A stretch of 64,000 nucleotides of DNA, from NCBI GenBank assembly GCA_021324655.1, contig JAJPIP010000044.1, positions 12,840 through 76,839 of the forward strand, given 5' to 3'. The position numbers and the translations under genes are program-made. This document shows, piece after piece, positions 15,040-38,307 of this stretch (the first letter of the stretch is position 1; every line of letters begins with the position of its first letter). The notes beneath the pieces are model-generated. The model searched no databases. It was given only the letters and a program-made list of their open reading frames with translations, and was not told the origin of the DNA. The DNA is from Pseudomonadota bacterium (lineage in GTDB: Bacteria > Chloroflexota > UBA5177).

Positions 15040-15588
15040 GTGAGCGAGGCCATCGGCGCGATGGCGGCAGCGACGCAGAGGACAGCCCTGAACGCTCCTC
15101 CTGACCTTGAGGAAGTTTTCTCGCGTTTTGTCGATCCGGTCTACCGGTTCCTCTATAGTCACGTGGGGAATCGGGAGGACGCCGAGGACCTGACTTCGGA
15201 AGTGTTCCTGAAAGCGGCACGACAACTCGACAGCGAACGGCCGGAGGCGAGTATTGCCAAGTGGCTGTTCACGGTGGCGCGCACCGTTCTCGCCGATCAC
15301 TGGCGGCGATACTACCGGGGCGGTGGTCACGTCCCTCTCGACGACACCTACCTCGGTACCGCTCGACAGGATCCGGCGCCCAGGATGTCAGCCGCCCGAG
15401 CCAGTCTTCTTGATGAGCTTCTGGATTCCCTGCCGGAGCGGTACCGGATGGTCCTGGAATTGCGGTTTCTTCGTGGCTATTCGATTCAAGAGACGGCGCG
15501 CGAATTGGACACGACACCGGAGAATGCGAAGGTGATCCAGCATCGCGCGCTGGCGAAGGCGGCCCAACTGATGGAGGGACGGCTGTGA
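15040..15588 (+). CDS. ECF RNA polymerase sigma factor
   Basis: Region 2 DAEDLTSEVFLKA...WLFTVAR; region 4 LPERYRMVLELRF...KVIQHRAL. Confidence 0.93.
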   Translation: MSEAIGAMAAATQRTALNAPPDLEEVFSRFVDPVYRFLYSHVGNREDAEDLTSEVFLKAARQLDSERPEASIAKWLFTVARTVLADHWRRYYRGGGHVPLDDTYLGTARQDPAPRMSAARASLLDELLDSLPERYRMVLELRFLRGYSIQETARELDTTPENAKVIQHRALAKAAQLMEGRL

Positions 15589-16235
15589 ACGATCCGGAAC
15601 GTCTGGACCGCGCCCTCGAGGAGCTCCTCCATGACCGATCGCCGCGCGGCGTCGGCGAATCGCTGGACGGCGAGGAGCAGCGTATGCTCCGTGTCGCGCA
15701 GCTCTTACGGGGCAGCCGGCCGGCAGATCCCGACGGTGAGTTTGTCGAAGCGCTGCACGCGCGCTTGTTTCCCGCGCCCGCCCGGGTCTCGCGCCGTACT
15801 GCCTTTCTGGGCGGGCTCGGCGCGCTCGCTGCGGGTGTCCTGGCGGGCGTGGGCATCGATCGTTTCGCGTCGGAGAGCAGGTCTGCGACCACATGGACGC
15901 CGCTGGTTGGCGCCAATGGGCGCTGGGTACCGGTGGCGACGGTCGCGGACCTGCCGCACGGCACCATCAAGGCGTTCCGAGCGGGTCATGTCCAGGGATT
16001 CCTCATCAACCGGCACGGTGAAATCCGAGCGCTGTCGGGCGTCTGTACGCACATGGGATGTCTGCTCGAGTTCAAGCAGTCTGACCAGGCATTCGTCTGC
16101 CCCTGCCACGGCGCTGAGTTCAGCATCTCCGGCGAGGCTTACCAGGGACCTCATCACTACAACATCCGGCTATCCCCCCTCCCTGAGATTCGGGTGAGGC
16201 GAAGTGGTGAGTCGATCGAAGTCTGGAGCGTGTAG
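15585..16235 (+). CDS. Rieske [2Fe-2S] protein with N-terminal anti-sigma-like domain and internal twin-Arg/TM segment
   Basis: CTHMGC and CPCHG boxes; SRRTAFLGG followed by a TM helix; GTGA overlap with the sigma gene stop. Confidence 0.88.
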   Translation: MNDPERLDRALEELLHDRSPRGVGESLDGEEQRMLRVAQLLRGSRPADPDGEFVEALHARLFPAPARVSRRTAFLGGLGALAAGVLAGVGIDRFASESRSATTWTPLVGANGRWVPVATVADLPHGTIKAFRAGHVQGFLINRHGEIRALSGVCTHMGCLLEFKQSDQAFVCPCHGAEFSISGEAYQGPHHYNIRLSPLPEIRVRRSGESIEVWSV

Positions 16236-18494: not shown

Positions 18495-19550
18495 ATGAAC
18501 GAGGATCAGCGGGAGTTCTTGCGCCGTCTGGTCGAAACGACGGGGCCATCCGGGTACGAAGAGCGCGCCCAGGCTCTGTGGCGGGAGCGCGTCGCTCCGG
18601 TCGCTCCGGTGCAGATCGATGCGATGGGGAATGCCATCGCCACCCTCAATAAGGATGGCTCCCCACGCGTCATCATCGAGGCACACATCGACGAGATCGG
18701 TTTCCAGGTGCGTTACATCGACGACGACGGGTTTCTCTGGTTTTCGCCGATTGGCGGTCTCGATCCGGTGACCCTGGCCGGCAATCCGGTGCGAATCATG
18801 GGAAAGTCAGGGCCGGTTCTCGGGGTCATCGGCCGTAAGGCGGCGCACCTCGTGTCGGACGAGGAGAGAGGCAAGCCGCCAAAGCTCAGCTCCTTCTGGA
18901 TCGACATTGGAGCTCGGGATCGGGCCGAGGCGGAGCGGCTGGTGGCAGTGGGTGATGCCGGAGGGCGCGCCGTGGGGATGGCCTCCTTGCAGGGACAGGT
19001 GATAACGGCCAATTCTCTTGACGACCGCGCCGGGGGCTACGTCATCGCCGAGGCGCTCCGTCGCCTCGCCGCCCATCCTCCGCAGGCTGCGGTGATTGCT
19101 CTGTCGGCGGTCCAGGAGGAGATCGGCTTGCGGGGCGCCGAGGCCGGTGCCTATGCCATCAACGCGCCGATCGGAATCGCCGTGGACGTAACGTATACCA
19201 GCGACCATCCCCAGGCTCCGAAGTCTGAGATCGGAGACATACGGGTCGGAGCGGGACCGGTTCTGTCGCGTGGCGCCAACACGAATCCGCGCATCTTTCA
19301 ACGTTTGGTCGCGGCTGCCGGGGCGGAAGGGATTTCGTATCAGGTGGACGCGGACCCGGTCGGCGCCGGGACCGATCAGCACGCGATGCAGATCGCGCGA
19401 GGCGCGATGGCGACCGGACTCATCAGCATTCCTACCCGATACCTGCACACCGCCTCGGAGGTCGCGTCGCTCGAGGATATCGACGCGTGTGTCAGATTGC
19501 TGACGCGTTTCGTGTCCGACCTGACCGCCGACGCCGACCTCATCCCGTAG
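18495..19550 (+). CDS. M42 family metallo-aminopeptidase
   Basis: GPSGYE, AHIDEIG, LDDRAG, QEEIG, VDVT and YLHT motifs. Confidence 0.92.
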   Translation: MNEDQREFLRRLVETTGPSGYEERAQALWRERVAPVAPVQIDAMGNAIATLNKDGSPRVIIEAHIDEIGFQVRYIDDDGFLWFSPIGGLDPVTLAGNPVRIMGKSGPVLGVIGRKAAHLVSDEERGKPPKLSSFWIDIGARDRAEAERLVAVGDAGGRAVGMASLQGQVITANSLDDRAGGYVIAEALRRLAAHPPQAAVIALSAVQEEIGLRGAEAGAYAINAPIGIAVDVTYTSDHPQAPKSEIGDIRVGAGPVLSRGANTNPRIFQRLVAAAGAEGISYQVDADPVGAGTDQHAMQIARGAMATGLISIPTRYLHTASEVASLEDIDACVRLLTRFVSDLTADADLIP

Positions 19551-19669
19551 AGGAACTATCCCACTCTGCATCGCTGCCGGCGCCGCTGTGCGCCTCGGGG
19601 TGGACCAGGGAGCTGCGCTCTGTATCTCGCCGTCCGGGGCGCATAATGCGGGAGAGAGTAGGTGATGGG

Positions 19670-20734
19670 ATGGTCCCGCTGCGCCGCGCCCTGATCGTTG
19701 TCCTCTGCGCCGTCATAGTGGCCGGCGCCTTGACCGGACTGATGACGGTGCGGTCGGACACGGCTCCGGCAGGTCCCGCGCTGGCCGGAACGCTGATGAA
19801 TCGTCCCGCTCCTCTCTTCACCTTGCCCGATCAGAGCGGCCGGCTGATATCGCTCCGCACGTTGCGTGGACACCCCGTTGTGCTGACCTTCCTCAGCGCG
19901 GCGTGTACCACGCTCTGTCCGGTCGTGGCGGAATCTATCGGGCGCGCGATCCGCGAGATGGGCCCGGCCGGCAAGCGGGTGACCGTGCTGGCGGTCAGCA
20001 CGGCGCCGGAGGAGGACAGCAGGGCAGCGACGCTCAGGTTTCTTCGCGCGCACCAGGACCTCAACTGGCATTATTTGTCGGCGCCGCGGCGCGTCCTGGC
20101 GCGGGTCTGGCGGGAGTACTACGTCTATGTGGCCCCGGCCAACGCTCCGCAATCGGTCAAGAATGATCACACGAGCGCGACCTACTTCCTCGACGCGTCG
20201 GGACGAGAGCGGGTGCTGATGGCAGGTGCCGTATCCGGATCGGACGTCTTGCGTGACCTTCAGATCCTGTCGGGCGCTCCGGTCGCCCAGACGGTGGGGT
20301 CGCGGGTCGCGGCGCCGCAAGTGGGGCACCCGGCACCCAGTCTGGCGCTACCGACACTGTCCGGCGGGCGGCTCTCCTTGCGCTCTCTCCATGGCCGGAC
20401 GCTCCTTCTCAACTTCTGGGCCTCCTGGTGCACGGCCTGCCGTACTGAGATGCCTCTCCTCGTGCGCTGGGAGCATCGCCTGGGAGGACGGCTGATGGTG
20501 GTGGGCGTGGATGAGCAGGACAGTGCCGGCGCCGCTCGCACCTTCCTGGCGCGCTACGGCGCGCGCTATCCCGTGCTGTTCGACGGGTCGAACTACGGCG
20601 CGGCGCAGTACGACATCGTCGGCCTCCCGACCTCCTTCCTCATCACACCGGATGGCGTGGTTCGATTCGTCTATCAGGGACAACTGACCAATCGCGACTT
20701 TGTGCGACAGATAGTGCCGGCCCTTGGAGGCTGA
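19670..20734 (+). CDS. SCO1/SenC domain fused to a TlpA/ResA-like thioredoxin
   Basis: TM anchor; CTTLCP...H (SCO); LNFWASWCTAC...GLPTSF (TlpA). Confidence 0.85.
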   Translation: MVPLRRALIVVLCAVIVAGALTGLMTVRSDTAPAGPALAGTLMNRPAPLFTLPDQSGRLISLRTLRGHPVVLTFLSAACTTLCPVVAESIGRAIREMGPAGKRVTVLAVSTAPEEDSRAATLRFLRAHQDLNWHYLSAPRRVLARVWREYYVYVAPANAPQSVKNDHTSATYFLDASGRERVLMAGAVSGSDVLRDLQILSGAPVAQTVGSRVAAPQVGHPAPSLALPTLSGGRLSLRSLHGRTLLLNFWASWCTACRTEMPLLVRWEHRLGGRLMVVGVDEQDSAGAARTFLARYGARYPVLFDGSNYGAAQYDIVGLPTSFLITPDGVVRFVYQGQLTNRDFVRQIVPALGG

Positions 20735-20735
20735 G

Positions 20736-21221
20736 ATGCGCGAGCCCCTTCGCTCGGATCCCTCTGCACGGACGCGGCGGCGCGCGTACCGATACCGGCG
20801 CCCGCACACCCCTCACTTTTATCTCGTCCTTGGGGGCCTCACCGGTGCCGTCCTCGTGTGTGTGCTGAATCTCGTGTCGTACGTCACAGGCAGCGTCTTG
20901 CTGGCGACTGTTACCTTCGGCGCCACGCTCTTCACTGCCTTGATGATCTTCCTCGCGTTTTTCTGGGGCTTTTACATGGTGAGTAGCGGCCTGAACCCGG
21001 AGCGCCGTATCGTGATCCTCCACGGAGCCGTCGGGATGCTGGCTCCGCTGTTCTACACGCTGAATATCGACGCGGCGCTCGACGGCGTGGGGACATCTCC
21101 GGTTGGTGCTCTCTCCCTCGGCACCAGCTTCGCTTGTCTGGGCCTGCTGATCGTGCAATTCTTGATGGGGAAGGCCGTGGTCAAAACGGAGCGACTCCGG
21201 GTGATCCGGCCCGAGGAGTGA
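20736..21221 (+). CDS. Four-TM hypothetical membrane protein
   Basis: Four hydrophobic segments; lies between the two SCO genes with gaps of 1-4 nt. Confidence 0.75.
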   Translation: MREPLRSDPSARTRRRAYRYRRPHTPHFYLVLGGLTGAVLVCVLNLVSYVTGSVLLATVTFGATLFTALMIFLAFFWGFYMVSSGLNPERRIVILHGAVGMLAPLFYTLNIDAALDGVGTSPVGALSLGTSFACLGLLIVQFLMGKAVVKTERLRVIRPEE

Positions 21222-21225
21222 GCTG

Positions 21226-21792
21226 ATGCGCGTCGTATCGCTCGTGTTGGGTCTTGTCATGCTGACGGCGGGACCGGTGCTGGCCGCCGGTCGACCCTCC
21301 CTGCACGGCACCGAGGTTTTTCAGGTCGGCCAGCATCGCGCGCCCGATTTCACCCTCCGGGATGTGAACGGGGGACGCCTGCATTTCGCCTCGTTACGGG
21401 GGCACGTGGTCGCCCTGACATTTCTCGATTCGCAGTGCCGGCAGCAATGCCCTCTGGTCGGACGGGAGCTGGCCACGGCGCAGCGGCACCTTGGCGGCGG
21501 GCACTCGCCGCTGGTGATCGTGGTCGTGAGCGTGGCGCCCCGGCACGATACGCCCCGGAGTGTTCACCGTTTTATGCGTGACATGCGTATGACGGGCCGG
21601 TGGTACTGGCTGACCGGAACGCAGGAACAGCTGAACCGCGTTTGGGTGGAGTGGGGTATCGAGGTGGTCTCGACCGTGACGCACACGTCCGCGGTCTATC
21701 TGGTGGATCGACACGGCTGGGTTCGTGTGGCCGACGGCGATCTTATCATCCCCAGTCAACTGGTTGAGAGCGTTCGCGCTCTGCTCAACTGA
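21226..21792 (+). CDS. SCO1/SenC copper chaperone
   Basis: CRQQCP, WLTG and HTSAVYLVD motifs; signal peptide. Confidence 0.88.
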   Translation: MRVVSLVLGLVMLTAGPVLAAGRPSLHGTEVFQVGQHRAPDFTLRDVNGGRLHFASLRGHVVALTFLDSQCRQQCPLVGRELATAQRHLGGGHSPLVIVVVSVAPRHDTPRSVHRFMRDMRMTGRWYWLTGTQEQLNRVWVEWGIEVVSTVTHTSAVYLVDRHGWVRVADGDLIIPSQLVESVRALLN

Positions 21793-21942
21793 GCACTGAT
21801 TGACGACGTCATCTGTTTACAACTTGACAGGACGTCAACCGAGGAAGATTATGAAATCAAGGATCAGTCCTAATCTGGGCAGTACGATTTCCCCTTTCGT
21901 GGAGTGGGCCGCTAGGCCGGACGGGGAGCGGAGGTAGAGAGC

Positions 21943-23844
21943 ATGGCTGTCGCGACCGGTGTAATGCCCGCGAGGCGTTCGTGGCTCATGCGCCCGAACA
22001 TGCTGTGGGCGTTTGTCCTGGGCATTGCCGCCTTTGTGTTCGTGGTCTGGGGGCTGGGGCACGACGGCGGTCTGCTGCCGTCGTGGGGACTCGAGATCAA
22101 CCAGATCATGTTCCTTGGCTACGGCGCGGCGATCCTTTTCTTCTTCATCGGCCTGGGAGTCTTCAATGAGCCGGTGAAGTGGCTTCTGGGTATTCCCATC
22201 TCCGAGGAAGAGGAACTGGAGCGTTACGGCGCCTACGGCGGGATCGACCGCTACTTTCGCTACACGCTCGACCACAAGGTCATCGGCATCCAATACATGG
22301 TGACGATCCTGGCCGCCTTCTGTCTGGGTGGCTTCATCGCCATGCTGATTCGGACCGAGCTTCTCACGCCGAACGCGAGGTTCACCGATCCGGAGACGTA
22401 TCTCTCCCTGGTCACCGAGCACAGCGTCATCATGCTGGTCATGGCCAGCAGCATCATCATTGGAAGTTTTGGCAACTACTTTATTCCGCTCTTCATCGGC
22501 TCGAAGCGCATGGCCTTTCCGCGCATTGAGGCGCTTTCCTTCTGGCTCTTCCTTCTCGCCATCGTGATCATGCCGACCGCGCTGTTCTTCGGTGGGTCTC
22601 AGACAGGATGGACCGGGTATGCCCCGCTCGCCGACCAGATGCATGCCGGGCATGATGCGTACATCACGACCTGGGCGCTGGCAGGGACGGCCAACACCCT
22701 GGTTGGGATCAACCTGGTGGCAACGATCTGGCTGATGCGCGCTCCCGGCATGACCTGGTCGCGCATGAACCTCACCTGCTGGTCGGTCCTGGTCGGCGCC
22801 ATCCTTGACTGGTTGGCCATGCCGATCATGGTCGCGGTGCAGAGCATGGTGGGCTTCGACCGCGCCCTCCTGACCGGCCTTTTCGTCCCTGTCCAGGGAG
22901 GCAGCGCTTTCTTCTACGAAAACGTGTTCTGGACGTTCGGCCATCCCGAGGTGTACATCCTCGCCATTCCAGGCATGGGCATTGTCCTTGACATCCTGCC
23001 CGTCTTCACCCGCCGTCCGATCTACGCGTATCGCGCGGCGGTGGTCGGCATGCTGGGAATCGGGCTTCTGAGCTGGTTCGTCTGGCAGCATCACCTCTTT
23101 GTCAGCGGCCTCACGCCGGGCCTGCGTCCCTTCTTCATGTTCTCGACCGAGATGATCTCGTTCCCCACGGGACTCGTGTTCCTGGCGGCCCTTGGGACGC
23201 TGTACGGCGGTGCCATCCGTTTCAAGACGGCCATGTTGTTCGCGGTCGCGTTCTTCCCCGACTTTCTCCTGGGCGGGTTCAGCGGCATCTTTGTGTCCGA
23301 TGTTCCGAGTGATGTGCAGTTGCACGGATCCTACTGGGTCCAGGCGCATTTCCACTTCATCCTGATGGGGGCGACGCTCTTCGCGTTCTTTGCCGGGATC
23401 TACTTCTGGTTCCCCAAGTTCACGGGACGGCGCCTCAATGAGCGGCTCGGTCAAGTGCACTTCTGGTTGATGTGGATCGGCTTCAACGGCACCTTCATCA
23501 CGCTGGCGATCGTCGGGATCATGGGGATGTCGCGGCGCTACGCGACGTACTTCCCTTACCTACAGGGTGTCAATGTGACCGCGACCATCTTTGCCTACCT
23601 GCTCGGCATCTCAATCATTCCGTTCCTGTGGAACTTCATCTACTCATGGGGTTGGGGTGAGAAGGCGGAAGAGAATCCCTACCAATCACGCAGCCTGGAG
23701 TGGCAGGTCCCGACGCCGATACCGGTCGACAACTTCGAGGAGATCCCACTCGTGCTGAGCGGTCCATACGAGTACTGGAGCAACCAGCCCATGGCCATTC
23801 TCAAGCCCTCTGAGTCGGCCGGAACACCGGCCGCGGGCAACTAG
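21943..23844 (+). CDS. ctaD: Heme-copper oxidase subunit I (divergent A-type) with N-terminal TM extension
   Basis: DHKVIG, H(SVIM), GWTGY, GHPEVY, WQHH, AHFH, RRY. Confidence 0.95.
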   Translation: MAVATGVMPARRSWLMRPNMLWAFVLGIAAFVFVVWGLGHDGGLLPSWGLEINQIMFLGYGAAILFFFIGLGVFNEPVKWLLGIPISEEEELERYGAYGGIDRYFRYTLDHKVIGIQYMVTILAAFCLGGFIAMLIRTELLTPNARFTDPETYLSLVTEHSVIMLVMASSIIIGSFGNYFIPLFIGSKRMAFPRIEALSFWLFLLAIVIMPTALFFGGSQTGWTGYAPLADQMHAGHDAYITTWALAGTANTLVGINLVATIWLMRAPGMTWSRMNLTCWSVLVGAILDWLAMPIMVAVQSMVGFDRALLTGLFVPVQGGSAFFYENVFWTFGHPEVYILAIPGMGIVLDILPVFTRRPIYAYRAAVVGMLGIGLLSWFVWQHHLFVSGLTPGLRPFFMFSTEMISFPTGLVFLAALGTLYGGAIRFKTAMLFAVAFFPDFLLGGFSGIFVSDVPSDVQLHGSYWVQAHFHFILMGATLFAFFAGIYFWFPKFTGRRLNERLGQVHFWLMWIGFNGTFITLAIVGIMGMSRRYATYFPYLQGVNVTATIFAYLLGISIIPFLWNFIYSWGWGEKAEENPYQSRSLEWQVPTPIPVDNFEEIPLVLSGPYEYWSNQPMAILKPSESAGTPAAGN

Positions 23845-23855
23845 GGAGGTTCGCT

Positions 23856-24488
23856 GTGGCAGAGAGCACGCAGTTTCACTCCGATGCGGCCGAGCAGGCA
23901 TTCGCTCCGGTGCCGCGGTCTCTCGACGACCGCCTGACGCTGCTGTCGGTTCGCATGTTCTACATCGCGGGGTCCTTCTTCTTTGCGTCCTTCTACTTTG
24001 GTCTGGTCTACCTCCAGATCATGAATCTCAACAACATGTGGCTACCGCACGGCATCGACCATCCGCCGGCCTGGATCGGGGTATCGGAGGTGGTCCTCGT
24101 GCTGCTCGCCGGATCCGCCTACTTCGTCGGACAGTGGTTCGGCATGTACCGCGGCAATTTCAGCCTGCTCCGTTTGATGCTGTGGGTGGCAAGTCTGCTG
24201 ACCGTCGTCGCGGTGATCATCCACATCTACGAGCTGCACAATCCGGGTTTCAGCCTGCAGGGCGGTGGGTACGTCAGCCTCTTCATCGCGATCGAGACCG
24301 TTTTCACCATCTTTCTGGTCGTGACGGCGCTGGTGTTGATCGGCGTCGCGATCCGCGCCCAGAAGGGGCTCTTCAGTCGAAATGGCATCGCGGTGGCAGG
24401 ATTTGGCGAGTACTTCGGCTGGCTGGCCGGGGTGGCGCTCTTTAACTTTCTGGCGCTGTACGTGCAGCCCTTCTTCCCGATCGCGTGA
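23856..24488 (+). CDS. Heme-copper oxidase subunit III-like protein (divergent)
   Basis: Five TM helices; FFFASFYF, GYVSLF; directly follows subunit I. Confidence 0.7.
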   Translation: MAESTQFHSDAAEQAFAPVPRSLDDRLTLLSVRMFYIAGSFFFASFYFGLVYLQIMNLNNMWLPHGIDHPPAWIGVSEVVLVLLAGSAYFVGQWFGMYRGNFSLLRLMLWVASLLTVVAVIIHIYELHNPGFSLQGGGYVSLFIAIETVFTIFLVVTALVLIGVAIRAQKGLFSRNGIAVAGFGEYFGWLAGVALFNFLALYVQPFFPIA

Positions 24489-25393
24489 CGACCATGAACT
24501 GGCTGTTGCAGTGGTCGTTTGATCCGGGGATCGTGGCGGCGATTGCCCTCGCCGCCATCCTGTACTGGCGAGGACGTCGCCGTCTCAGCGATGTCCGGCG
24601 CGGCGTGCCGCTGGAGCGCTGGCGAGTCGCATCGTTCTACGCGGGGCTGGTCGTGGTCCTGCTGGCGCTGGAGTCACCCATCGACGTGCTCTCCGCGTAC
24701 CTCTTCAGCTTCCACATGATCCAGCACTTGTTGCTCATCATGGTTGCTGCACCGTTGATTTTGATGGGTGATCCCGGCGTGACCATCATGCGTGGTGTCC
24801 CGCTCTCCCTGCGCCGATCAGTCCTCGGCTCGGGGGCGCGGCAGGGCTGGTTGCATCACCTGGGTCACTGGTTCGGCCGCCTCAATCACCCCGTCCCGGC
24901 GGCGGTGATCTTCCTGGTCGATCTGTATCTCTGGCACTGGAACTTCCTGTTCAACCTGACCCTTCAGAACGATGCGGTGCACGCGTTCGAGCACCTCTGC
25001 TTTCTGGGGACCGCCCTTCTCCTGTGGACACAGGTCATCGATCAGCGGGCTCTGCACCCCCGACTCGGCCACTTCCAGCGGGCGATCTTTACCGTCATTG
25101 TCGGCGGGCTCAGCAATCTGCTCGCGATGTACTTCGTCTTTTCAACGGTCCCGCTGTATACCTACGCGCGGGTCATCAATCGTCCCTTTGGCATGACGGC
25201 GCTCGGCGACCAGCAACTGGCCGGAGGCATCATGTGGGTGCCTGTCCTCTTCCTCTTCGCCGGAGCCTTCGCGACGTTCATGTACCTGGGCCTGGGAGAA
25301 GATGCAGAGGCGGCTCCCCAGGCCGCGGTCGAGACACCGTATAGAGTCATACCCCGGCGGGCGCCGGGTGATGTGGGAGGTCGGCATGTCTAA
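24485..25393 (+). CDS. ctaG: Cytochrome c oxidase assembly factor, caa3-type CtaG
   Basis: SPID...FSFHMIQH...APL, WH, HAFEH and DQQLAGGIMW motifs. Confidence 0.9.
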   Translation: MTTMNWLLQWSFDPGIVAAIALAAILYWRGRRRLSDVRRGVPLERWRVASFYAGLVVVLLALESPIDVLSAYLFSFHMIQHLLLIMVAAPLILMGDPGVTIMRGVPLSLRRSVLGSGARQGWLHHLGHWFGRLNHPVPAAVIFLVDLYLWHWNFLFNLTLQNDAVHAFEHLCFLGTALLLWTQVIDQRALHPRLGHFQRAIFTVIVGGLSNLLAMYFVFSTVPLYTYARVINRPFGMTALGDQQLAGGIMWVPVLFLFAGAFATFMYLGLGEDAEAAPQAAVETPYRVIPRRAPGDVGGRHV

Positions 25394-26036
25394 CCGAGGC
25401 ATCCTCGTGACAGCGTTGTTCACCGTCATCGGGATCATTCTCCTGGCTTTGATGACGTTCTGGGTCGGGTACCACGCGGCCTACAGTGCCAACCGGGCAG
25501 CGGCCGGAGCCGTCACCATCTCCACCAACAGCAGCGGGCAACCGGTGGCGCATATCTCGCTCAGCATTCAGCAAGAAGTTGGCGTGGGCCCCAACGCAGC
25601 ATGGTTGGGCTATCAGACCCGGACGAATCCTCCGCACCCCGGAACCATCTTCACCGTGCCCGCGAACGCTCTCGTGACTATGGATATCCACAACTTCGAC
25701 TCCACGACGGCACTGCGAAACTACTTCTTCACGAAGGTGCAGGGGACCATCGGCGGCGTCGAGTACGTGAATGGGAAGCGCATCACCGTCATGAATCCCG
25801 ACGACCTCTCCCATACGTTCACTTTCCCGGCGGCCGGCGTGTCGGTGCCCATGATGGGGATCCCGAACAATGCGCGGGCGGGGGCGTTCGAGGACATGCG
25901 CTTCAGCTTCCGTGCCCCCTCCAGGAAGGGCGTCTACCGCTGGCAGTGCATCGTGCCGTGTGGCTGGGGGACGTACGGCAACGGCGGACCGATGGGTGAG
26001 ATCGGCTACATGAGCGGCCTGATCACGGTCAACTAG
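25386..26036 (+). CDS. Membrane-anchored cupredoxin-like protein with atypical ligand loop
   Basis: SD GGAGG; TM helix; HTFT and YRWQCIVPCG...PM...YMSG motifs. Confidence 0.75.
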   Translation: MSNRGILVTALFTVIGIILLALMTFWVGYHAAYSANRAAAGAVTISTNSSGQPVAHISLSIQQEVGVGPNAAWLGYQTRTNPPHPGTIFTVPANALVTMDIHNFDSTTALRNYFFTKVQGTIGGVEYVNGKRITVMNPDDLSHTFTFPAAGVSVPMMGIPNNARAGAFEDMRFSFRAPSRKGVYRWQCIVPCGWGTYGNGGPMGEIGYMSGLITVN

Positions 26037-26047
26037 GAGGGACGCGC

Positions 26048-26977
26048 GTGAGACACGCCATACGTATTGCGATCATCTGGATTGTCGTCACCGCCATCCT
26101 GGAGGTTTTGATTGGGATCGTTCCCATCCCGTCGCCGGTGGGGTCGGATGAAGGTGAAGGAATCCACCAGACCATCTACATGCTGTTCTACCTGGGCGCA
26201 CCCATCTTTGCCTTTGTGTGGGTCGTGCTGCTGTATGGTTTGATCACCTATCGGGCGCGCGATCCCCAAACCGAGACGGAACGGCCGCCGATGCCGGGAT
26301 CGAATGCCCTGATCCTGCTCTGGGCCGGGATTACCTTCCTGATCGTTCTTTTCATGGCGGGTTGGGGGACGTTCACACTGCACGAGATCACGCAGCCGCC
26401 GTCGGTAGCTGCGGAGGGAAGCGCGGCCTCCACCCGCAGCCACCCCGGTGCTACCAACCAGAAACAGCCGGGAGGTCTGCCGGCAGGGTCGGTCTACACC
26501 AACGCTCGTCCGCTCATCGTTCAGGCCATCGGCCAGCAGTGGTTCTGGACATTCCGCTATCCGAGCTTCGGCGGAATGGAAACCAAGGAACTCGTGGTGC
26601 CGGTGGGTGTCCCCGTTCTCTTCCACATCACCTCGCTGGATGTCGTGCATAGCTTCTGGATCTACGAGGAGGACGTCAAAGAGGACGCGGTCCCCGGACA
26701 GGACAACACCGCGTGGATGGTGGCGCGGTTCCCCATACATACCGAGGTCAACGGCAAGAACTCGGCGTACTGCAACGAGCTGTGCGGTCTCTGGCACGGC
26801 TACATGGTAGCCAATGTGACCGTCGAGAAGTATTCGGCGTTCAAGAGTTGGGCTACGCACATGGAGTCGTACGAGAAATCGACAGGTCTCCTGAAAAACT
26901 TGCCGTCCTACGCGCCGGTGTACTATCCGGCATCCAACGCGAACTTCCCGCCCGCGCCCCAGGATCAGTCACCGTAG
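26048..26977 (+). CDS. ctaC: Cytochrome c oxidase subunit II (CuA, no cytochrome c domain)
   Basis: QQWFWTFRYP, DVVHSFW and CNELCGLWHGYM motifs. Confidence 0.93.
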   Translation: MRHAIRIAIIWIVVTAILEVLIGIVPIPSPVGSDEGEGIHQTIYMLFYLGAPIFAFVWVVLLYGLITYRARDPQTETERPPMPGSNALILLWAGITFLIVLFMAGWGTFTLHEITQPPSVAAEGSAASTRSHPGATNQKQPGGLPAGSVYTNARPLIVQAIGQQWFWTFRYPSFGGMETKELVVPVGVPVLFHITSLDVVHSFWIYEEDVKEDAVPGQDNTAWMVARFPIHTEVNGKNSAYCNELCGLWHGYMVANVTVEKYSAFKSWATHMESYEKSTGLLKNLPSYAPVYYPASNANFPPAPQDQSP

Positions 26978-26978
26978 C

Positions 26979-27137
26979 ATGGTGGTTCTCCTCCTGACGG
27001 CTCTGCTCGTCCTGGTCGTGGGCGGGCTCATCCTCTATGGCGCCGTCGCCTACCGGCGTCAGGCGGCGGGGCGTGAGGTACTCTGGACTGGGATGGCCGC
27101 GCTCTTGTTGGTGCTGCTGTTCGCCTACGTGCGTTAG
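26979..27137 (+). CDS. 52-aa two-TM protein resembling the COX2 transmembrane hairpin (absent from the ORF track)
   Basis: MVVLLLTALLVLVVGGLILYGAVAYRRQAAGREVLWTGMAALLLVLLFAYVR fills the gap between ctaC and ctaB. Confidence 0.75.
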   Translation: MVVLLLTALLVLVVGGLILYGAVAYRRQAAGREVLWTGMAALLLVLLFAYVR

Positions 27138-27142
27138 AGGGG

Positions 27143-28069
27143 ATGGGTATGGTTGCGGGTGAAGTTGGCGCGGCAGAGATCGCTGTCCCGTCGCGGAGTG
27201 AGAAGATCTCGGCCTACGTCGCGGTGACCAAGCCACGCATTATGAGCTTGCTCCTGGTCACCACCCTTGCCGCCCTCCTCATCGCCGCCCGTCAACATCC
27301 GCTCCCCACATTGACCCTCTGGCGAGTGCTGGTGGCCACGATCGGCGGCGGCGTTCTGGCTTCCGGCGGGGCCGCCGCTCTGAACTGCTATATCGATCGT
27401 GATATCGATGTGGTCATGGCACGCACCCGGCGGCGGGCGATTCCGACCGGGACTCTGTCCCCGCGCGAGGTGCTGATCTTCGGTCTGTCGTTGACCGCGT
27501 TGTCGGTGGTGGTTCTGCTGATCTTCACCAACCCGCTGGCGGCCGTTCTGGCCTTCCTGGGGAACTTCTACTACGTCGTCATTTACACGCTCTGGTTGAA
27601 GCGCAGCACCACCCAGAACATCGTGATCGGCGGCGTAGCCGGTGCCATCCCGCCGCTGGTGGGGTGGGCAGCGGTGACGGGCGGTCTGGCGCTCCCCGCC
27701 TTTCTCCTCTTCGTCATCATCACCTACTGGACGCCTGCCCATTTCTGGTCGCTGGCGCTGCTCGTGCGGGGCGATTACTCGCGTGCTCACGTGCCCATGC
27801 TGCCGTCGGTGACCAGCCAGACGCACGCGCGCTGGCAGATCCTGGTCTACGCGCTGCTCGTCGTCATCGCCTCTCTCCTGCTGGGCGCTGTCCACGCCAT
27901 GGGCGCGATCTATATCGGCGGGGCGATCGTCCTCGGAGCGACCTTCCTGGGCTTTGCTGTGACCCTGGCCGCCCGGGGGACGGCGCGCCTGGCTCGCCGC
28001 ACGTTCCTCTTCTCCAATCTCTATCTGGCGGCTCTCTTTGCCGTCATGGTGATCGATCGCCTTGTCTGA
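27143..28069 (+). CDS. ctaB: Protoheme IX farnesyltransferase (heme O synthase)
   Basis: TKPRI, NCYIDRDIDVVMART, YTLWLKR, NIVIGG and WTPAHF motifs. Confidence 0.95.
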   Translation: MGMVAGEVGAAEIAVPSRSEKISAYVAVTKPRIMSLLLVTTLAALLIAARQHPLPTLTLWRVLVATIGGGVLASGGAAALNCYIDRDIDVVMARTRRRAIPTGTLSPREVLIFGLSLTALSVVVLLIFTNPLAAVLAFLGNFYYVVIYTLWLKRSTTQNIVIGGVAGAIPPLVGWAAVTGGLALPAFLLFVIITYWTPAHFWSLALLVRGDYSRAHVPMLPSVTSQTHARWQILVYALLVVIASLLLGAVHAMGAIYIGGAIVLGATFLGFAVTLAARGTARLARRTFLFSNLYLAALFAVMVIDRLV

Positions 28070-28634
28070 GGGGGTGCTCCCCGCATCCCGGCCGGCCTCG
28101 CAGCGTCTGATCGCGGGGGCACTGATTCTGGTCACGGCTCTCATCGTGATCGGCCAGCTGGTGGCGGTGTTCGGCGCATTTCGGAGTGACAGCGGGGCCG
28201 TGCCCATCCCCTCTCACGGTTCCGTCAGCCGGCGGCTCGATGCGGTATTGATCGATGCGCTGGGACCGAGTGACCGCGGCGTTCGCCGCTTTCGTCTGGC
28301 GCCCCCGGTCCATCACGGCAACAGCTACAGCGTCTCCATCATCTGGTCCCTGAACAACGACGTGGCGGAAGGAACCGTGGGAAACGGCGGCGCGGCCGAT
28401 GTCTACAACATGCTGCATGACCTGGCGGTATCCGGGATACCGATTTCCTCGGTCCGCCTCACCGGGACCTATCCCGTTGCCGGCCAGGAGCGCGTCGTGA
28501 TGCAGCTCGCCGCCGGGCGAAAACTGCTGGCGCTCCTGAAGTCGGTGGGAAGCGATGGCCTCGATCCGCAGTCGGCCTGGCCGCTGGTGGATCGGATGTA
28601 TGTCTATCCCCCCGTTCAGCCGACCGGAGAGTAA
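28062..28634 (+). CDS. Membrane-anchored hypothetical protein
   Basis: N-terminal TM helix; overlaps the ctaB stop. Confidence 0.7.
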   Translation: MSEGVLPASRPASQRLIAGALILVTALIVIGQLVAVFGAFRSDSGAVPIPSHGSVSRRLDAVLIDALGPSDRGVRRFRLAPPVHHGNSYSVSIIWSLNNDVAEGTVGNGGAADVYNMLHDLAVSGIPISSVRLTGTYPVAGQERVVMQLAAGRKLLALLKSVGSDGLDPQSAWPLVDRMYVYPPVQPTGE

Positions 28635-30235: not shown

Positions 30236-31287
30236 CAGTAGGTCCGTCCTTTCCAGCGTGCGGTATGCAGGAGTGTTCGCCGCATCCCGTCCACTGCCAG
30301 GATCTGAAAGGTCACGGAGGCCAGCGGCTGGAGGAGCGCATAGCGGCGCGGCACTCCGAACCGGTCGAGCCAGGGCACGAGTCCGAGAACCGGCGCTATG
30401 AGGAGTGCACCACGCACCGGGCCGCGGGCCGTCATCATGGGCAGCGCGCCGCCGGCCAGCCCCGCCAGCACGGTGCGCAGACCGGAACGGGGCGCATGCA
30501 ACACGAAGCGAAAGACGTTTTTGCTGAGCCCATCCCACAGCGAGTGGAGATCGGGATACATCCGCACCGCCAGATCCTGCTCGGCGCGCAACAGCGTCAC
30601 CGGAAACCGCGCTTCTCGGGTCCGGCGCGCCAGCGCCACGTCCTCGACGAGGCTGGCGTGGACGGCCGCGTGTCCGCCGACCGCCTCATACACAGGGCGC
30701 GGAAAGAGCATGTACTGACCGTTGGCGACGTCGGGACCGCCGGGCCGGTTGATACCGGAGGCGCCGGCAAAATACAGCGCGTACGCGTAGGGCAGGAGCA
30801 GGCACTCCCAGAAGGTCCGGCATATCTGGCGGGCGAGCAGAGAGGTCAGGCCGGGCCGGCCGAGCGCGCGACTGAGACTTCGCGGACCGTGGATCGTGTC
30901 GGCATCCGTGAAGAGCAGCCATTCACCGCGCGCCTCCCGTGCCCCAACCCAGCAGGCGTGGCATTTGCCCGTCCAGCCGCGAGGCAGCGGACCGGCCGGG
31001 ATGACACGCGCTCCCGCCGCGGCGGCGATCTCCGCCGTCGTGTCCCGCGAGCCATCATCGACGACGATGATTTCCGCCTCTGGATACGTGAGGGATTGCA
31101 GCGAGTGAAGAAGCGCGGGCAGACGTTCGGCCTCGTCGCGGGCCGGGATGATGATCGACACGAGGCCGGCGTCAATGATCTCCTCGTCGCCAAGCGTCGG
31201 TAGGGCGCGGTAGTTCCTCTCCGCCTGCCGGGAGGACGTAGCATGGATGGCGAGTGCCAGCCGGCCTAAATATCGGCTGACGCCCAA
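30235..31287 (-). CDS. GT2 glycosyltransferase (CruC/CrtQ-like carotenoid glucosyltransferase)
   Basis: IIPARDE, VVDDGS, GWTGK, FTDAD, ANGQ, VEDV and VRMY motifs; TTG start inferred. Confidence 0.85.
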   Translation of the reverse strand: MGVSRYLGRLALAIHATSSRQAERNYRALPTLGDEEIIDAGLVSIIIPARDEAERLPALLHSLQSLTYPEAEIIVVDDGSRDTTAEIAAAAGARVIPAGPLPRGWTGKCHACWVGAREARGEWLLFTDADTIHGPRSLSRALGRPGLTSLLARQICRTFWECLLLPYAYALYFAGASGINRPGGPDVANGQYMLFPRPVYEAVGGHAAVHASLVEDVALARRTREARFPVTLLRAEQDLAVRMYPDLHSLWDGLSKNVFRFVLHAPRSGLRTVLAGLAGGALPMMTARGPVRGALLIAPVLGLVPWLDRFGVPRRYALLQPLASVTFQILAVDGMRRTLLHTARWKGRTY

Positions 31288-32645
31288 CCTGAGGCTCCGT
31301 TGGGGTAGGCACCATGCACACGGGCGTTCTGGATCGCACCGGAGCCGTCGATGGTCCGCGCTTCGATGCGGCCGCGGCGCGCGGGAAGGACAATGCGCCA
31401 CTGGACCCAGGCATCTGGTCCCAGACGGGGCCCAATCTCCGCCTGCAACCAGTGGCCGCCCGTGACCCGCACCTGCACGGCATGGACGCCACGATTCCCG
31501 GCAAAAGCGATGCCCGCCGCGAGTGTGCCGCTGGGGACGCGGCGCACGACGTCGATCCGCGTCGTCGTTTGGATCACCGGCATGTCGGCCCAGCCATGCG
31601 CCGCCCAGTGTCCCGATCCTGCGCTCGCCCGCACGCGGAGACGGCTCAGCCACTTGACGCTCTTGAAACCGTAGAGTCCGGGGATCAACAGGCGAGCCGG
31701 GTACCCATGGGCACGGTCCAGCATCACTCCATTCATACCCACGGCGATCAACGCGTCGGTGCGTCGCAGGATCTCGACCGGGACGCTTTCGCTGTATCCG
31801 TCCAGTCCGTCGATCTGCACCGTCGCTCCTCGCGCTCCGGCGAGGGACAGAACCCGGAAAGCCGGCACGCCCGTCCAGAGCGCATTGCCAATGAGAGGAC
31901 CTCCCACCGGATTGTCCACACACTCCATGGTGACGTAGCGCTGCTCGGCGCCGCGCAGGAGGTCGTCCAGCCCGAGCGAGAGTGGATGCGTGACCTCGCC
32001 GTCTACGGCGAGACGCCAGCCGGTCCCGGCAATCGGGTATTCCAGAACCTGATCGTTGACATAAAAGCCATCCACGGGCGTGACCAGCTCGGAGAGTCCC
32101 GGGATATTGAGATCGGTGGGCCGGCGGAAGGGAAATAGCCGGCGCGTGACGGCCGGGTGGAGGAGCGGGCGAACTTCATAGAGGAGCAGCAGGCCTGCTG
32201 CTCCTCCCACTATGCTGCCGCTCCGGAGCAGAAAGTCACGGCGGCCCGGAGCGTGATGCACGCGATGGACGACCGTCAGCCCGAGGCCGTACATGACGAC
32301 GGTCACGATGACCGTCAGGCCGATTGGTACCGAAAGCAGCATCAAGAGCAAGAGCAGGACGGACGGAGCGGCAACGAATGCCAGGCGGTGGAGAGGCGCG
32401 GCGATCGTCGCAGCGACTCCGGCACAGAGGAGAAGGCAAGCAAAGGCGCCCAGGAGCGCGGCCGGCCGGGCCCACCAGCCGGCGTGGAGGAGGAGGAAGT
32501 TGGCTATGGGCAGCGGCGTCGAGGCCATGAGCCACTCGCCGATTCCTTCGAGTGGCGAGGGGAGGCCGGCGACGGCGGCGAGTAGCGCGGCGATGAGAGC
32601 CGCCGGGACGACGGCGAGGAGACCGCCCTGATATTCTCGGGACAG
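31266..32645 (-). CDS. Membrane-bound sulfite-oxidase-family molybdoenzyme
   Basis: TMECVDN...GNALWTG, HGYPARL, GFKSVKWL; N-terminal TM helices followed by RRDFL; start codon unclear. Confidence 0.85.
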   Translation of the reverse strand: MSREYQGGLLAVVPAALIAALLAAVAGLPSPLEGIGEWLMASTPLPIANFLLLHAGWWARPAALLGAFACLLLCAGVAATIAAPLHRLAFVAAPSVLLLLLMLLSVPIGLTVIVTVVMYGLGLTVVHRVHHAPGRRDFLLRSGSIVGGAAGLLLLYEVRPLLHPAVTRRLFPFRRPTDLNIPGLSELVTPVDGFYVNDQVLEYPIAGTGWRLAVDGEVTHPLSLGLDDLLRGAEQRYVTMECVDNPVGGPLIGNALWTGVPAFRVLSLAGARGATVQIDGLDGYSESVPVEILRRTDALIAVGMNGVMLDRAHGYPARLLIPGLYGFKSVKWLSRLRVRASAGSGHWAAHGWADMPVIQTTTRIDVVRRVPSGTLAAGIAFAGNRGVHAVQVRVTGGHWLQAEIGPRLGPDAWVQWRIVLPARRGRIEARTIDGSGAIQNARVHGAYPNGASGWASADI

Positions 32646-32942
32646 ATGACCTATGCCGAATTTCTCGCGCTGTTCCTGGTGGTCCCGGTCGTCGTTCTGG
32701 CCGCTGCCGGTCCCTGGCCCCGCCGGCTCGGCCTGACGCTGGCCGCTCTGAGCGTCGTGGCTCTGCTCTACACCGCTCCGTGGGACAACATGATCGTCAC
32801 CGCCGGCGTGTGGTCGTACGGGCGAGGGCATGTCGCGGGGGTTGTGATCGGCCATGTTCCGCTCGAAGAATACGTGTTTTACGTCCTGCAGGTCGCCCTG
32901 GCCGGATTGCTGACCGCTCGACTCCTGCGGCGCTTTTCGTGA
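32646..32942 (+). CDS. Lycopene cyclase domain protein (CrtYc/Yd-type)
   Basis: YTAPWDN...W and PLEEYVF motifs. Confidence 0.88.
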   Translation: MTYAEFLALFLVVPVVVLAAAGPWPRRLGLTLAALSVVALLYTAPWDNMIVTAGVWSYGRGHVAGVVIGHVPLEEYVFYVLQVALAGLLTARLLRRFS

Positions 32943-35980: not shown

Positions 35981-38248
35981 TTAGCTCGATCGCTGGGAGA
36001 GCGCCTGCAGGACGCGCTCCGGCGTCATGGGCAGGTCAGTGGGGCGGATTCCGGTGGCATCGTAGATGGCATTGGCGATCGCCGCCGCGCCGCCGACCAC
36101 CGGCGGTTCACCCACTCCTCGGCCCCCGAGTGGACCGGAGGGATACGGAACCTCGACCAGGACGGGATCGATCTGCGGGACTTCGAGCGCCGATGGCAGC
36201 GCATAGTCCATGAAGGAACTGGTACGCAGGTGCGCCGACTCGTCGTACACGACCGATTCCAGAAGCGCCCAGCCCACGCCTTGCGCGACCCCGCCACGAA
36301 TCTGGCCGACGATGCCGGCGGGGTTGATGGCGCGCCCCACATCCTGTACCGCGACGTAGTCGAGGACCTCGACCTTCCCGGTCTCGTCATCCACGCGCAC
36401 CCGCGCCAGGTGCGCGATGAAGCCGGGCGCTGCGTCGTCCGGGGCTGCTCGTCCGCTCCCCAGAATCGGCCCATGCTTCGAGCCGAATCCGGTGGTAAGG
36501 GCGGCGATGCGCTCCAGGCTGACCGCACTGGAGGGAACGCCCTTCACTCGCACCTGTCCGTCGACGATCTCCAGATCATCCGGGGCCGCTTCCAGTTCGT
36601 CCGCCGCGATGGCGAGCACCTGCCGCCGTGCCTCTTCCGCTGCTTGCCGCACCGCCGAACCGACCGTGAAGGTAATCTTGCTTCCGCCGGCGGCGCCGGC
36701 GAAGGGAGCCGTGTCGGTCGGGGCGTCCGCCACCTCGACAGCGTCGTAGCCGACCCCAAAGGCGTCCGCCGCCAGCAGCGCGAAGCCCGAGCGCGTCCCG
36801 CTGATATCCGACGAGCCGACCACCACGGTGAGGGTGCCGTCGTCGTTGAGTCGGCATAGAGCGCTGGCCGGCTGGGTCCCTCCCGGCCAGCCCCCGAACG
36901 CGATGCCGACACCCTCGCCGGGACCCTTCTGATGCCGGTTCTGCCAGGCTGGATGGTTCCGCAGTGCCTCCAGGACCTCTCGCGAGCCGATGCGCGGCCA
37001 TGTCTCTTCGCCCGGCATCGAATCACCTTCCACGACGGCGTTCTTGAGGCGCATCTCGAACGGATCCAGGCCGAAGGTCCGCGCCAGCTCTTCGATCTGC
37101 CCCTCGATAGCGAAGCAGGCCTGAGGCGCGCCCGGGGCGCGATAGGCTCCGCACCCCGGCTTGTTCGTCAGGATCTCATAGGCGTCGATCCGCATATGCG
37201 GGAACCGGTACGTACCGCCGAGCAAGAGAGCAACGATGCCCGCTGTCCCGCCGGGGAACGACCCGGTGTCAACGATGATGGTGGCCTGTAACGCGGTGAG
37301 AGTGCCGTCCTTCCTGGCGCCCGTCTTGACGCGCATGGTAATGCCGGGGGCCGGCACCCCTGCCAGAAAATCTTCGGTGCGAGTTAGCGTCAAATGAACG
37401 GGCCGCTTGGTGTCCCAGGCCAGGGCGGCGACGAGCGGATCGAACACCGCATACTTGGCGCCGAACGCGCCGCCGACTTCCGCCGTCCGCACGTTGACGC
37501 GGCGCTCTGAGATTCCCAGTCCCTTGGCGACCTCCTCACGAACGAAGAACGCTCCCTGCGTGCTGGAGTGGACGTCGATATTGCCGGCATTATCGGGAAT
37601 GGCGACGACGGAGAACGGCTCGAGATAACCCTGGTAGACCCAGGACGTGTTGTAGGTGTGCTCGACCACGGCATCCGCCTCGGCGAACCCGCGGTCGATG
37701 TCGCCGCGCTGGTAGCGCTCGGCGGTCGTGCCGTTCGGCGGCATGGGCAGCTGCTGGGTATGTTCGCTGACGCTGGTGTGGGCGCCGGCATCGTCACGGA
37801 GGCCGAGTGCCTCGCTATCGTGCACCTGAACGTGCGTGTTCTCCATGGCGGCCACCGGGTCGCTCAACGCCTCTCGGGGCTCATAGTCAATTTCCACCAG
37901 GCCGGCCGCGTCCTCGGCAATCGCTTCCGACTCGGCGACGACGGCGACGACCGGCTGTCCCTCAAAGAACACGCGGTCGCGCGCCAGCGGATCACGTGAC
38001 CGGGTGAGCCCGTCGGGCGGAACGAGCGGCAGATCCTCCGCCGTGTAGACACCCACGACACCGGGCACCGCTTTCGCGGCCTCCGTGTCAACGCGCGTGA
38101 TGGTGGCATGGGGGTAGGGGCTGAGCACGAGCCGCGCGTGAAGCAGATTGGGGACCCGTAGGTCACCCGCGTAGACCGCTCGTCCCAGGACTTTGCGCTC
38201 GCCGTCCTCGCGGCGCACCCACTGCCCGATCACCGATTCCGTCGCCAT
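35981..38248 (-). CDS. Xanthine dehydrogenase family molybdopterin-binding (large) subunit
   Basis: SPYPHA, GGAFGAK, AYRAPG, DVGRAINP, GQIRGG and GVGEPP motifs. Confidence 0.92.
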   Translation of the reverse strand: MATESVIGQWVRREDGERKVLGRAVYAGDLRVPNLLHARLVLSPYPHATITRVDTEAAKAVPGVVGVYTAEDLPLVPPDGLTRSRDPLARDRVFFEGQPVVAVVAESEAIAEDAAGLVEIDYEPREALSDPVAAMENTHVQVHDSEALGLRDDAGAHTSVSEHTQQLPMPPNGTTAERYQRGDIDRGFAEADAVVEHTYNTSWVYQGYLEPFSVVAIPDNAGNIDVHSSTQGAFFVREEVAKGLGISERRVNVRTAEVGGAFGAKYAVFDPLVAALAWDTKRPVHLTLTRTEDFLAGVPAPGITMRVKTGARKDGTLTALQATIIVDTGSFPGGTAGIVALLLGGTYRFPHMRIDAYEILTNKPGCGAYRAPGAPQACFAIEGQIEELARTFGLDPFEMRLKNAVVEGDSMPGEETWPRIGSREVLEALRNHPAWQNRHQKGPGEGVGIAFGGWPGGTQPASALCRLNDDGTLTVVVGSSDISGTRSGFALLAADAFGVGYDAVEVADAPTDTAPFAGAAGGSKITFTVGSAVRQAAEEARRQVLAIAADELEAAPDDLEIVDGQVRVKGVPSSAVSLERIAALTTGFGSKHGPILGSGRAAPDDAAPGFIAHLARVRVDDETGKVEVLDYVAVQDVGRAINPAGIVGQIRGGVAQGVGWALLESVVYDESAHLRTSSFMDYALPSALEVPQIDPVLVEVPYPSGPLGGRGVGEPPVVGGAAAIANAIYDATGIRPTDLPMTPERVLQALSQRSS

Positions 38249-38307
38249 TTCCTCTTCTCCCGTCAACGCAATGCGGCCCACCGTGGCAGGCCGTAGCCCA
38301 TCTTCGC

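Follow-up and report, generated by a model that had tools for sequence, protein, structure and literature searches.

The window studied here, a stretch of 64,000 nucleotides from a Pseudomonadota bacterium (GTDB lineage Bacteria; Chloroflexota; UBA5177; assembly GCA_021324655.1, contig JAJPIP010000044.1, positions 12,840 to 76,839), carries a single heme-copper oxidase operon on the + strand (19487-28069), as delimited by the list of open reading frames (ORFs) and by Pfam and NCBIfam searches. We read this operon as encoding a working A-family oxidase in which the entry carboxylate of the D-pathway is shifted inward, the canonical K-pathway is dismantled and electrons enter through a cupredoxin, and we hold this reading as a whole to be about evenly poised between right and wrong. 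It turns on D132, N139 and K362 of subunit I, the residues that underlie thirty years of mutagenesis of A-type oxidases. A fixed alternative is found at these positions in 80 of the 80 loci that we examined, and at least 592 contig stretches encode a relative. Such a natural enzyme makes it testable where the D-channel carboxylate must sit and whether the K-path is indispensable. Since Thermoleophilia, Chloroflexota and Dormibacterota are abundant in soil, the coupling efficiency of this oxidase bears on the energetics of soil respiration.

Channel, ligand and metal-site residues of subunit I

Subunit I is a protein of 633 amino acids (21943..23844, + strand) that matches Pfam COX1 (E-value 5.7e-123; 411 bits versus a cut-off of 34.8) and, below the cut-off of 670.75, the CtaD_CoxA family TIGR02891 (536 bits). 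Ahead of canonical helix I (residues 112-142), two hydropathy segments at residues 15-43 and 50-82 represent extra N-terminal transmembrane helices, and this extension is common to the homologues aligned from residue 1. A second oxidase, a canonical caa3 type (L001), is encoded on another contig of the same genome. We aligned subunit I with phmmer to CtaD of M. smegmatis (6adq_F, E-value 1.3e-130) and with MAFFT to the CoxI of L001, and the two placements agree. Positions are quoted in what we take to be R. sphaeroides numbering, from which the window protein is offset by a constant 50 from N257 onward. The numbering was cross-checked against the spacing of motifs and against the residues listed in PMC3084760 (Sousa et al. 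2011), the cited part of which gives the same channel residue set in P. denitrificans (Pd) numbering.

An earlier note on this DNA had described complete ligands beside substitutions at both proton inlets and at the Mg site, and the alignments bear it out on each of these points. The six His ligands of heme a, heme a3 and CuB are H160, H334, H383, H384, H469 and H471, each kept in 119-120 of the 120 homologues described below, and the Glu (E336) and the cross-link Tyr (Y338) of GHPEVY are each present in all 120. These columns show the O2-reducing centre to be intact. The D-channel entry reads KRMAFPRIE (codons R189-E196, 22507..22530, +), where the canonical motif is xDMAFPRLN, so that R189 stands at the position of D132 (Pd Asp124) and E196 at that of N139 (Pd Asn131). 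The other type A1 D-channel residues of the Pereira/Sousa scheme, Pd Asn113, Asn199, Tyr35, Ser134 and Glu278 are found as N178, N257, Y118, S199 and E336. At S201 (Pd Ser193) the window has N251 and 88 of the 120 homologues have Met; next to it, at position 250, Ser is found in 95 of the 120.

Helix VIII reads EMISFPTGLV (codons E403-V412, 23149..23178, +) in the alignments and in the conservation counts. New in it are the Glu (E403) and S406; T409 is unchanged, and Val occupies the Lys position. Among the K-channel residues, Pd Lys354 and Ser291 are replaced by V412 and L349, whereas Pd Thr351 and Tyr280 are present as T409 and Y338. The change of the K-channel Ser (S299) to Leu had escaped the earlier note. 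Neither alignment places an Asp or a Lys at the canonical positions. The Mg/Mn-site pair HD has become HG (codons H461-G462, 23323..23328, +), with G462 at the position of D412 and H461 retained. We also noticed a 'SLREKE'-like motif in the cytoplasmic loop that links the second extra helix to helix I (CoxI residues 87-99; 22201-22239). Of 81 rows, 65 have E90 and 69 have E93; speculatively, this acidic loop could act as an antenna for protons near the altered D inlet.

Conservation and distribution

We drew the 120 best homologues from a set of 5.8 billion proteins. At the D132 position 118 of them have Arg and 2 have Gly, and at the N139 position all 120 have Glu. In helix VIII and the K-path, L299, T352, E353, S356 and T359 are each found in 120 of 120, and position 362 is Ile in 97, Val in 16, Thr in 6, Leu in 1 and Lys in none. 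The Mg-site position 412 is Gly in 119. The interior of the D-channel is retained, with N121 in 117, N207 in 120, S/T142 in 112, E286 in 120 and the Tyr of Pd position 35 in 118 homologues. When one genome per species was scanned for the pattern, at least 592 contig stretches (592 of the 600 listed) proved to encode a relative; in the 80 species-level loci that we examined among them, R132, E139, E353, S356 and G412 are each present in 80 of 80. Judged from the aligned sequences, the substitution pattern is a clade signature and not chance. The earlier note had also pointed to new acidic residues inside the membrane. Its Glu in STEM (E403) is conserved, whereas the Asp of ILDW is found in 2 of 120 and that of FPDF in 3 of 120 homologues (Asn in 117); by these counts the two Asp residues are lineage noise.

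By their titles, 2 of the 80 loci come from metagenome-assembled genomes (MAGs) of Chloroflexota, 1 from Acidobacteriota, and 77 from MAGs named after actinobacterial ranks or as 'uncultured bacterium', the actinobacterial titles being mostly Solirubrobacterales, Gaiellales and Thermoleophilia. Where carriers are named, they are Thermoleophilia and Chloroflexota MAGs from soil, peat and permafrost, and the Atlas rows add carriers from Dormibacterota. In a sample of 151 genomes from the phylum of the window, we counted matches of at least 47% identity that cover the N-terminal extension. Such matches are present in 6 of the 9 same-family genomes (5 of 8 without G136, which is flagged as unpublished), in 2 of the 4 same-order genomes and in 3 genomes elsewhere in the phylum; none of our other results depends on G136 or on G038. 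A canonical caa3 oxidase is present in family relatives as well. In the sequencing-run search, no RNA run was listed with the window stretch, and the sole run containing it may be the source sample.

Subunit II and an additional cupredoxin

Subunit II (26048..26977, +) matches Pfam COX2 (2e-15) and, below the cut-off, TIGR02866 (112.8 bits). Its CuA site is complete (H201, C242, E244, C246, H250 and M253, all in invariant columns), and it has no cytochrome c domain. The loss of the K-entry Glu, also claimed in the earlier note, holds: I89 occupies the column of the Glu in canonical 'VEISWT', and the 75 clade rows have Gln 64 times, Val 3, Gly 2, His 2, Ile, Leu, Ser and Asn once each, and Glu in no row. 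Residue by residue, the canonical K-pathway is shown by the alignments to be dismantled, with K362 replaced by Val or Ile, S299 by Leu and the Glu of subunit II by Ile or Gln.

Directly upstream of subunit II is a gene for a membrane-anchored protein of 216 amino acids with a cupredoxin fold (25386..26036, +; the longest ORF begins at 25302), for which no Pfam family was found and which was recognised by AlphaFold2 (AF2) and Foldseek. A homologue stands directly before CoxII in 76 of the 80 loci. The AF2 model (predicted local distance difference test, pLDDT, 82.7) has one helix (residues 3-28) and, after it, a beta sandwich. Its best Foldseek match is 5ndc_B, subunit II of a ba3 oxidase (2e-5), followed by the CuA domain of N2O reductase, AcoP (7z3i_A) and rusticyanin; the best matches in the PDB have E-values from 2e-5 to 4e-4 and template modelling (TM) scores of 0.25-0.48. 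In the alignment of the family, H143, C188 and C192 (CxxxC) do not vary, and M203 and M209 hardly do. After the Cys residues this alignment shows no conserved second His, so that the usual ligands (one Cys, one Met, two His) are incomplete.

In a model of the complex of CoxII with this cupredoxin, ipSAE is 0.75, as against 0.00 for the best control. Of 157 solved complexes 116 attain this mark, as do 2 of 215 mismatched pairs, a rough yardstick since our own alignments were used here. Across runs at least 93% of the contacts are common, and the pLDDT of the partner is at least 85. The modelled interface brings CoxII residues 161-168 and 247-254 (the Trp/CuA loop) against the Cys/Met loop of the partner (residues 185-206). 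In this prediction the cupredoxin sits against the CuA face of subunit II, the expected side of electron entry. A conserved extra cupredoxin of this kind suggests an electron-entry module undescribed for these phyla. A second cupredoxin is encoded elsewhere in the window (11216-12100, +; Cupredoxin_1 1.3e-13, Copper-bind 1.2e-11), fused to a DUF7482 domain; possibly it carries electrons in the same chain, in soluble or anchored form.

Origin of the substitution pattern

We built trees with FastTree (131 rows) and with IQ-TREE (60 rows, with the six trait columns removed). The proteins with Arg at 132 and Glu at 139 (R/E forms) fall into a supported clade of 12 rows, with a Shimodaira-Hasegawa-like approximate likelihood ratio test (SH-aLRT) value of 95. 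Its sisters, P0121 and P0122, keep the D..N inlet and already have E353, no Lys and HG. A clade of 16 rows (SH-aLRT 99) holds the R/E clade, these two sisters and two other variants of the D entry. One more R/E protein, P0230, is found in a second Lys-less group of 11 rows. We observed that P0230 is an oxidase of 818 amino acids with KR...E at the D inlet, and that the other members of its group keep D..N. A single clade of all 13 E139 rows is rejected by the approximately unbiased (AU) test (p 4.9e-5, log-likelihood difference 109), and therefore the R/E pair arose at least twice, both times on a background of E353, no Lys and no D412. The clade is well supported in these trees, and its deep placement in them is tentative.

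E353 itself is found in 24 of the 131 representative rows, and all 24 lack K362, lack D412 and have Ser or Thr at 356. A constraint joining the two Lys-less groups is not rejected (p-AU 0.705), and its tree beats the free search by 12 log units; the association of E353 with the loss of Lys may therefore trace to a single event. Convergence of E353 with Lys loss was dropped as an explanation because the joined groups fit better. A single clade of all E353 rows is rejected, in a test confounded by non-E rows inside one of the groups. We further noticed another A-family group, of about 790-860 amino acids, that has Gln at the K362 position and in several members Glu at 132 or Ser/Thr at 139 (P0156, P0160, P0164, P0167, P0172, P0174, P0182, P0187, P0219 and P0242).

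Proposed mechanism and alternative explanations

The operon would encode an A-family cytochrome/cupredoxin:O2 oxidoreductase made of subunits I, II and III and a dedicated cupredoxin, on the deep branch catalogued as '2TM', and the enzyme would work beside the canonical caa3 of the same genome. Its D-pathway would be kept, with the inlet carboxylate moved about two helical turns inward, to the Glu at the N139 position. The surface Asp would have given way to an Arg preceded by Lys or Arg, making the enzyme a natural counterpart of the D132N/N139D enzyme of R. sphaeroides. The invariant Glu353/Ser356 pair, which changed together with the loss of the Mg-site Asp, may have assumed some of the work of proton delivery or of the P-side water/Mg cluster. 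Electrons probably enter by way of the membrane-anchored cupredoxin docked, in the model, on the CuA face of subunit II. We favour E196 as the inlet of the D-path because this Glu is invariant even with Gly132, because the swap evolved twice, and because the D132N/N139D enzyme pumps according to the cited part of PMC7196763, in which N139D alone is uncoupled. Since E139 is kept in the two homologues with Gly132, the Glu is a constrained element and not a mere salt-bridge partner. The rewired proton pathway suggested in the earlier note is partly supported. It fits because the fixed substitutions adjoin the retained N121, N207, S/T142 and E286 and the new, invariant Glu/Ser pair of helix VIII.

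Several points weigh against this reading. The single mutant N139D is uncoupled (PMC7196763; PMC9499568, in the parts cited). The recoupled double mutant has Asn at 132, whereas Arg is present here, so pumping cannot be inferred from it. Arg189 might also extend to Glu196 and so shut the channel. E353, judged by helical periodicity, points some 180 degrees away from K362 and therefore may not face the K-path. It co-varies with D412, H277 and H472, and also with S299, and going by these columns a role of E403 in the P-side cluster appears as plausible as one in proton uptake. A single ancestral event may underlie the association of E353 with the loss of Lys; independent-pair tests of it had no power (p of at least 0.5), and the groups compared in the AU tests were named only after the trees had been seen. 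As to the cupredoxin, metal binding is uncertain, since the alignment shows no second His such as type-1 and CuA sites have, and the pass of the complex model may in part be memory of the way cupredoxins pack against each other.

The best-surviving alternative, an unlikely one that deserves to be taken seriously, is an uncoupled, non-pumping oxidase. It would reduce O2 and separate charge by the chemical protons, pumping having been abolished by a carboxylate at the Asn gate together with the loss of the K-path, and it would serve as a fast electron sink or O2 scavenger beside the pumping caa3. N139D in R. sphaeroides, N131D in P. denitrificans and N99D in yeast are all uncoupled with full or raised turnover (in the passages cited of PMC7196763 and PMC9499568), and canonical caa3 oxidases are present in this genome and in family relatives. 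However, removal of the Asp132 charge in N139D restored pumping (PMC7196763, in the same passages), and Asp132 is gone in the window enzyme. The strict conservation of E286 and of the Asn gate across phyla also suggests that the D-path still matters.

Taken further, the preferred reading of an inward-shifted D-path carboxylate would have all protons, those for the chemistry and those pumped, pass through a re-engineered D-path with a buried Glu and an Arg/Lys guard, in the absence of any K-path, in an oxidase very common among soil bacteria. It would include a built-in cupredoxin subunit that supplies the electrons and has a His-Cys-Cys-Met metal site. We put this stronger version forward tentatively, as a doubtful extension. 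If true, the enzyme would be a mirror image of the B and C families, and the His-Cys-Cys-Met site would be previously undescribed.

Improbable in our view is a D-path plugged by an Arg189-Glu196 ion pair, with all protons entering by a single new route along helix VIII (T409, S406, E403 and T402). All four residues of this route are invariant, the K-channel of the clade carries the label 'KC, hybrid or modified' in the part of PMC8239418 cited, and B and C types run on one alternative, Lys-less K-channel (PMC3084760, in the part cited). Yet the lower K-path is hydrophobic (V412, A415, L349 and I89 of subunit II), the two clade members with Gly132 still have E139, and such a plug would leave the invariance of E286, N121 and N207 with no reason.

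Very unlikely is an adaptation of the proton inlets to acid, as proposed for the oxidases of acidophilic iron oxidisers; the earlier note had offered an acid-adapted subfamily as one possibility, and we found no support for it. Related Lys-less '2TM' oxidases do occur in acidophilic iron oxidisers (10.1101/2020.03.01.968255; PMC8239418), and the Acidithiobacillus rus operon has a gene for a cupredoxin ahead of COX2 (10.1101/2020.03.01.968255), each as stated in the passages cited. However, the named carriers here are the soil, peat and permafrost MAGs mentioned above, the proton inlets face the cytoplasm and not the acid side, and the D-channel of the acidophiles is conserved according to the same passages of the preprint. 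Coupling to an alternative ion (e.g., Na+) or decay of a paralogue, for neither of which we found a supporting point, is hardly credible, given an open reading frame with 50-82% identity to homologues in other phyla, invariant catalytic residues and no identified ion-site motif.

Other genes of the operon and the window

The operon begins with a fusion of SCO1/SenC and a TlpA/ResA-like thioredoxin domain (19487..20734, +), in which residues 111-240 match Pfam SCO1-SenC (5.1e-16) and residues 279-394 match AhpC-TSA/Redoxin (4.4e-33). The fusion is likely a copper-site assembly factor, and a homologue is found near CoxI in 55 of the 80 loci. It is followed by a membrane protein of 165 amino acids (20724..21221, +) with no match in Pfam or NCBIfam, a homologue of which adjoins CoxI in only 2 of the 80 loci, both from Chloroflexota (L003 and L004). 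A second SCO1/SenC copper chaperone (21226..21792, +; Pfam SCO1-SenC 7.4e-17) precedes subunit I.

Downstream of subunit I, the gene at 23856..24488 (+) encodes a divergent subunit III with five helices. It reaches Pfam COX3 with an E-value of 0.0029, below the cut-off, and hhalign against the canonical COX3 part gives an E-value of 0.006 with a probability of 6%. Because this sequence evidence is weak, the identity of subunit III is taken from the fold, in a model of modest confidence (AF2, pLDDT 67.6): in a Foldseek search of the PDB the top 42 rows are all oxidase subunit III, the best being 1m56_C (1e-3), with TM scores of 0.5-0.59. Next is a caa3-type CtaG assembly factor (24485..25393, +; Pfam Caa3_CtaG 4.2e-49), which has a homologue in 75 of the 80 loci. 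After the genes for the cupredoxin and subunit II, the operon ends with heme O synthase CtaB (27143..28069, +; NCBIfam NF003349, 350 bits versus a cut-off of 246); heme A synthase is encoded at another place in the same genome. The operon is flanked by an ORF of 190 amino acids (28062-28634, +) that belongs to no family and has an oxidase-adjacent homologue in 1 of the 80 loci, from Chloroflexota.

Upstream in the window, an ECF-type (extracytoplasmic function) sigma factor is followed, with an overlap of 4 bases, by a protein of 216 amino acids with a C-terminal Rieske [2Fe-2S] domain (15040-16235, +), which occupies the position expected for an anti-sigma factor. Downstream are a molybdopterin oxidoreductase (31266-32855, -; Oxidored_molyb 1e-36) and the large subunit of a xanthine/CO-dehydrogenase family enzyme (35981-38536, -; MoCoBD_1 6e-69), the products of which are possible electron sources.

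Comparison with known systems

Degli Esposti et al. (10.1101/2020.03.01.968255; PMC8239418) treat the COX1 of acidophilic iron oxidisers and of MAGs of Actinobacteria and Chloroflexi, in which, in the passages cited, the Lys position is hydrophobic and the Glu of COX2 is lost; the preprint describes the D-channel of the acidophile enzymes as essentially conserved. Table S1 in the supplement of PMC8239418 lists a subclade '2TM Chloroflexi & Actinobacteria' with the K-channel entry 'no, KC, hybrid or modified', two extra transmembrane helices, caa3_CtaG and HPEVY. The window oxidase appears to match this group, showing every listed feature that can be tested: the two extra helices, the absence of a canonical K-channel, caa3_CtaG and HPEVY. 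The two also share their taxa (Chloroflexi, Actinobacteria and Ca. Dormibacter). The earlier note had allowed that the sequence might fall into a characterised subfamily in which the substitutions are already explained. This holds to the extent that the loss of the K-channel was catalogued by Degli Esposti et al. in 2021, and the loss of the lysine is therefore already published. In the part of PMC8239418 cited, however, the subclade is known from a sequence catalogue only, with no experimental explanation.

The swap of Asp to Arg and of Asn to Glu was not found in the literature searched, and the supplementary figures of PMC8239418 may already show the D-channel of the clade. The passages cited from that paper and its Table S1 contain no mention of the helix VIII Glu, the Mg-site change or a cupredoxin partner, and a literature search linking Thermoleophilia with the D-channel returned nothing relevant. 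As far as we have searched, novelty lies in the Arg/Glu D-inlet of a natural enzyme and its two origins, in the linked changes of helix VIII and the Mg site, and in the cupredoxin predicted to dock.

The D132N/N139D form of the R. sphaeroides aa3 oxidase resembles the window enzyme in that the surface Asp is gone and a carboxylate stands at 139, and this mutant is active and pumps (Branden et al. 2006, as cited in PMC7196763). It differs in being engineered, in its residues at 139 (Asp, where the window enzyme has Glu) and 132 (Asn, where the window enzyme has Arg), and in having an intact K-path and Mg site. The aa3 oxidase of the Acidithiobacillus ferrooxidans rus operon is likewise a Lys-less '2TM' enzyme, with the gene for a membrane-bound cupredoxin right before coxB, and the gene order in the window matches its cup(acoP)-coxB. 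The host there is an acidophile, and the D-channel is reported, in the material cited, to be conserved. AcoP binds its oxidase and sustains oxidase activity, and typical cupredoxin copper ligands are one Cys, one Met and two His (PMC4059628, in the part cited). In comparison with AcoP, the cupredoxin of the window has a His, two Cys (CxxxC) and a Met, and shares 13% identity with it in the fold match.

The B-family ba3 oxidase of Thermus thermophilus also has a Lys-less analogue of the K-channel, and the cupredoxin finds its best fold match in the one-helix subunit II of this enzyme (5ndc_B). However, the B family has no D-channel residues, whereas the window enzyme keeps E286 and the Asn gate and scores as A family. 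A further system for comparison is the caa3 oxidase L001, from the same organism and the same family and with heme A available to it. It differs from the window oxidase in its canonical D, N, K and TD residues and subunit II Glu, in the cytochrome c domain of its subunit II, and in the fusion of its subunits I and III.

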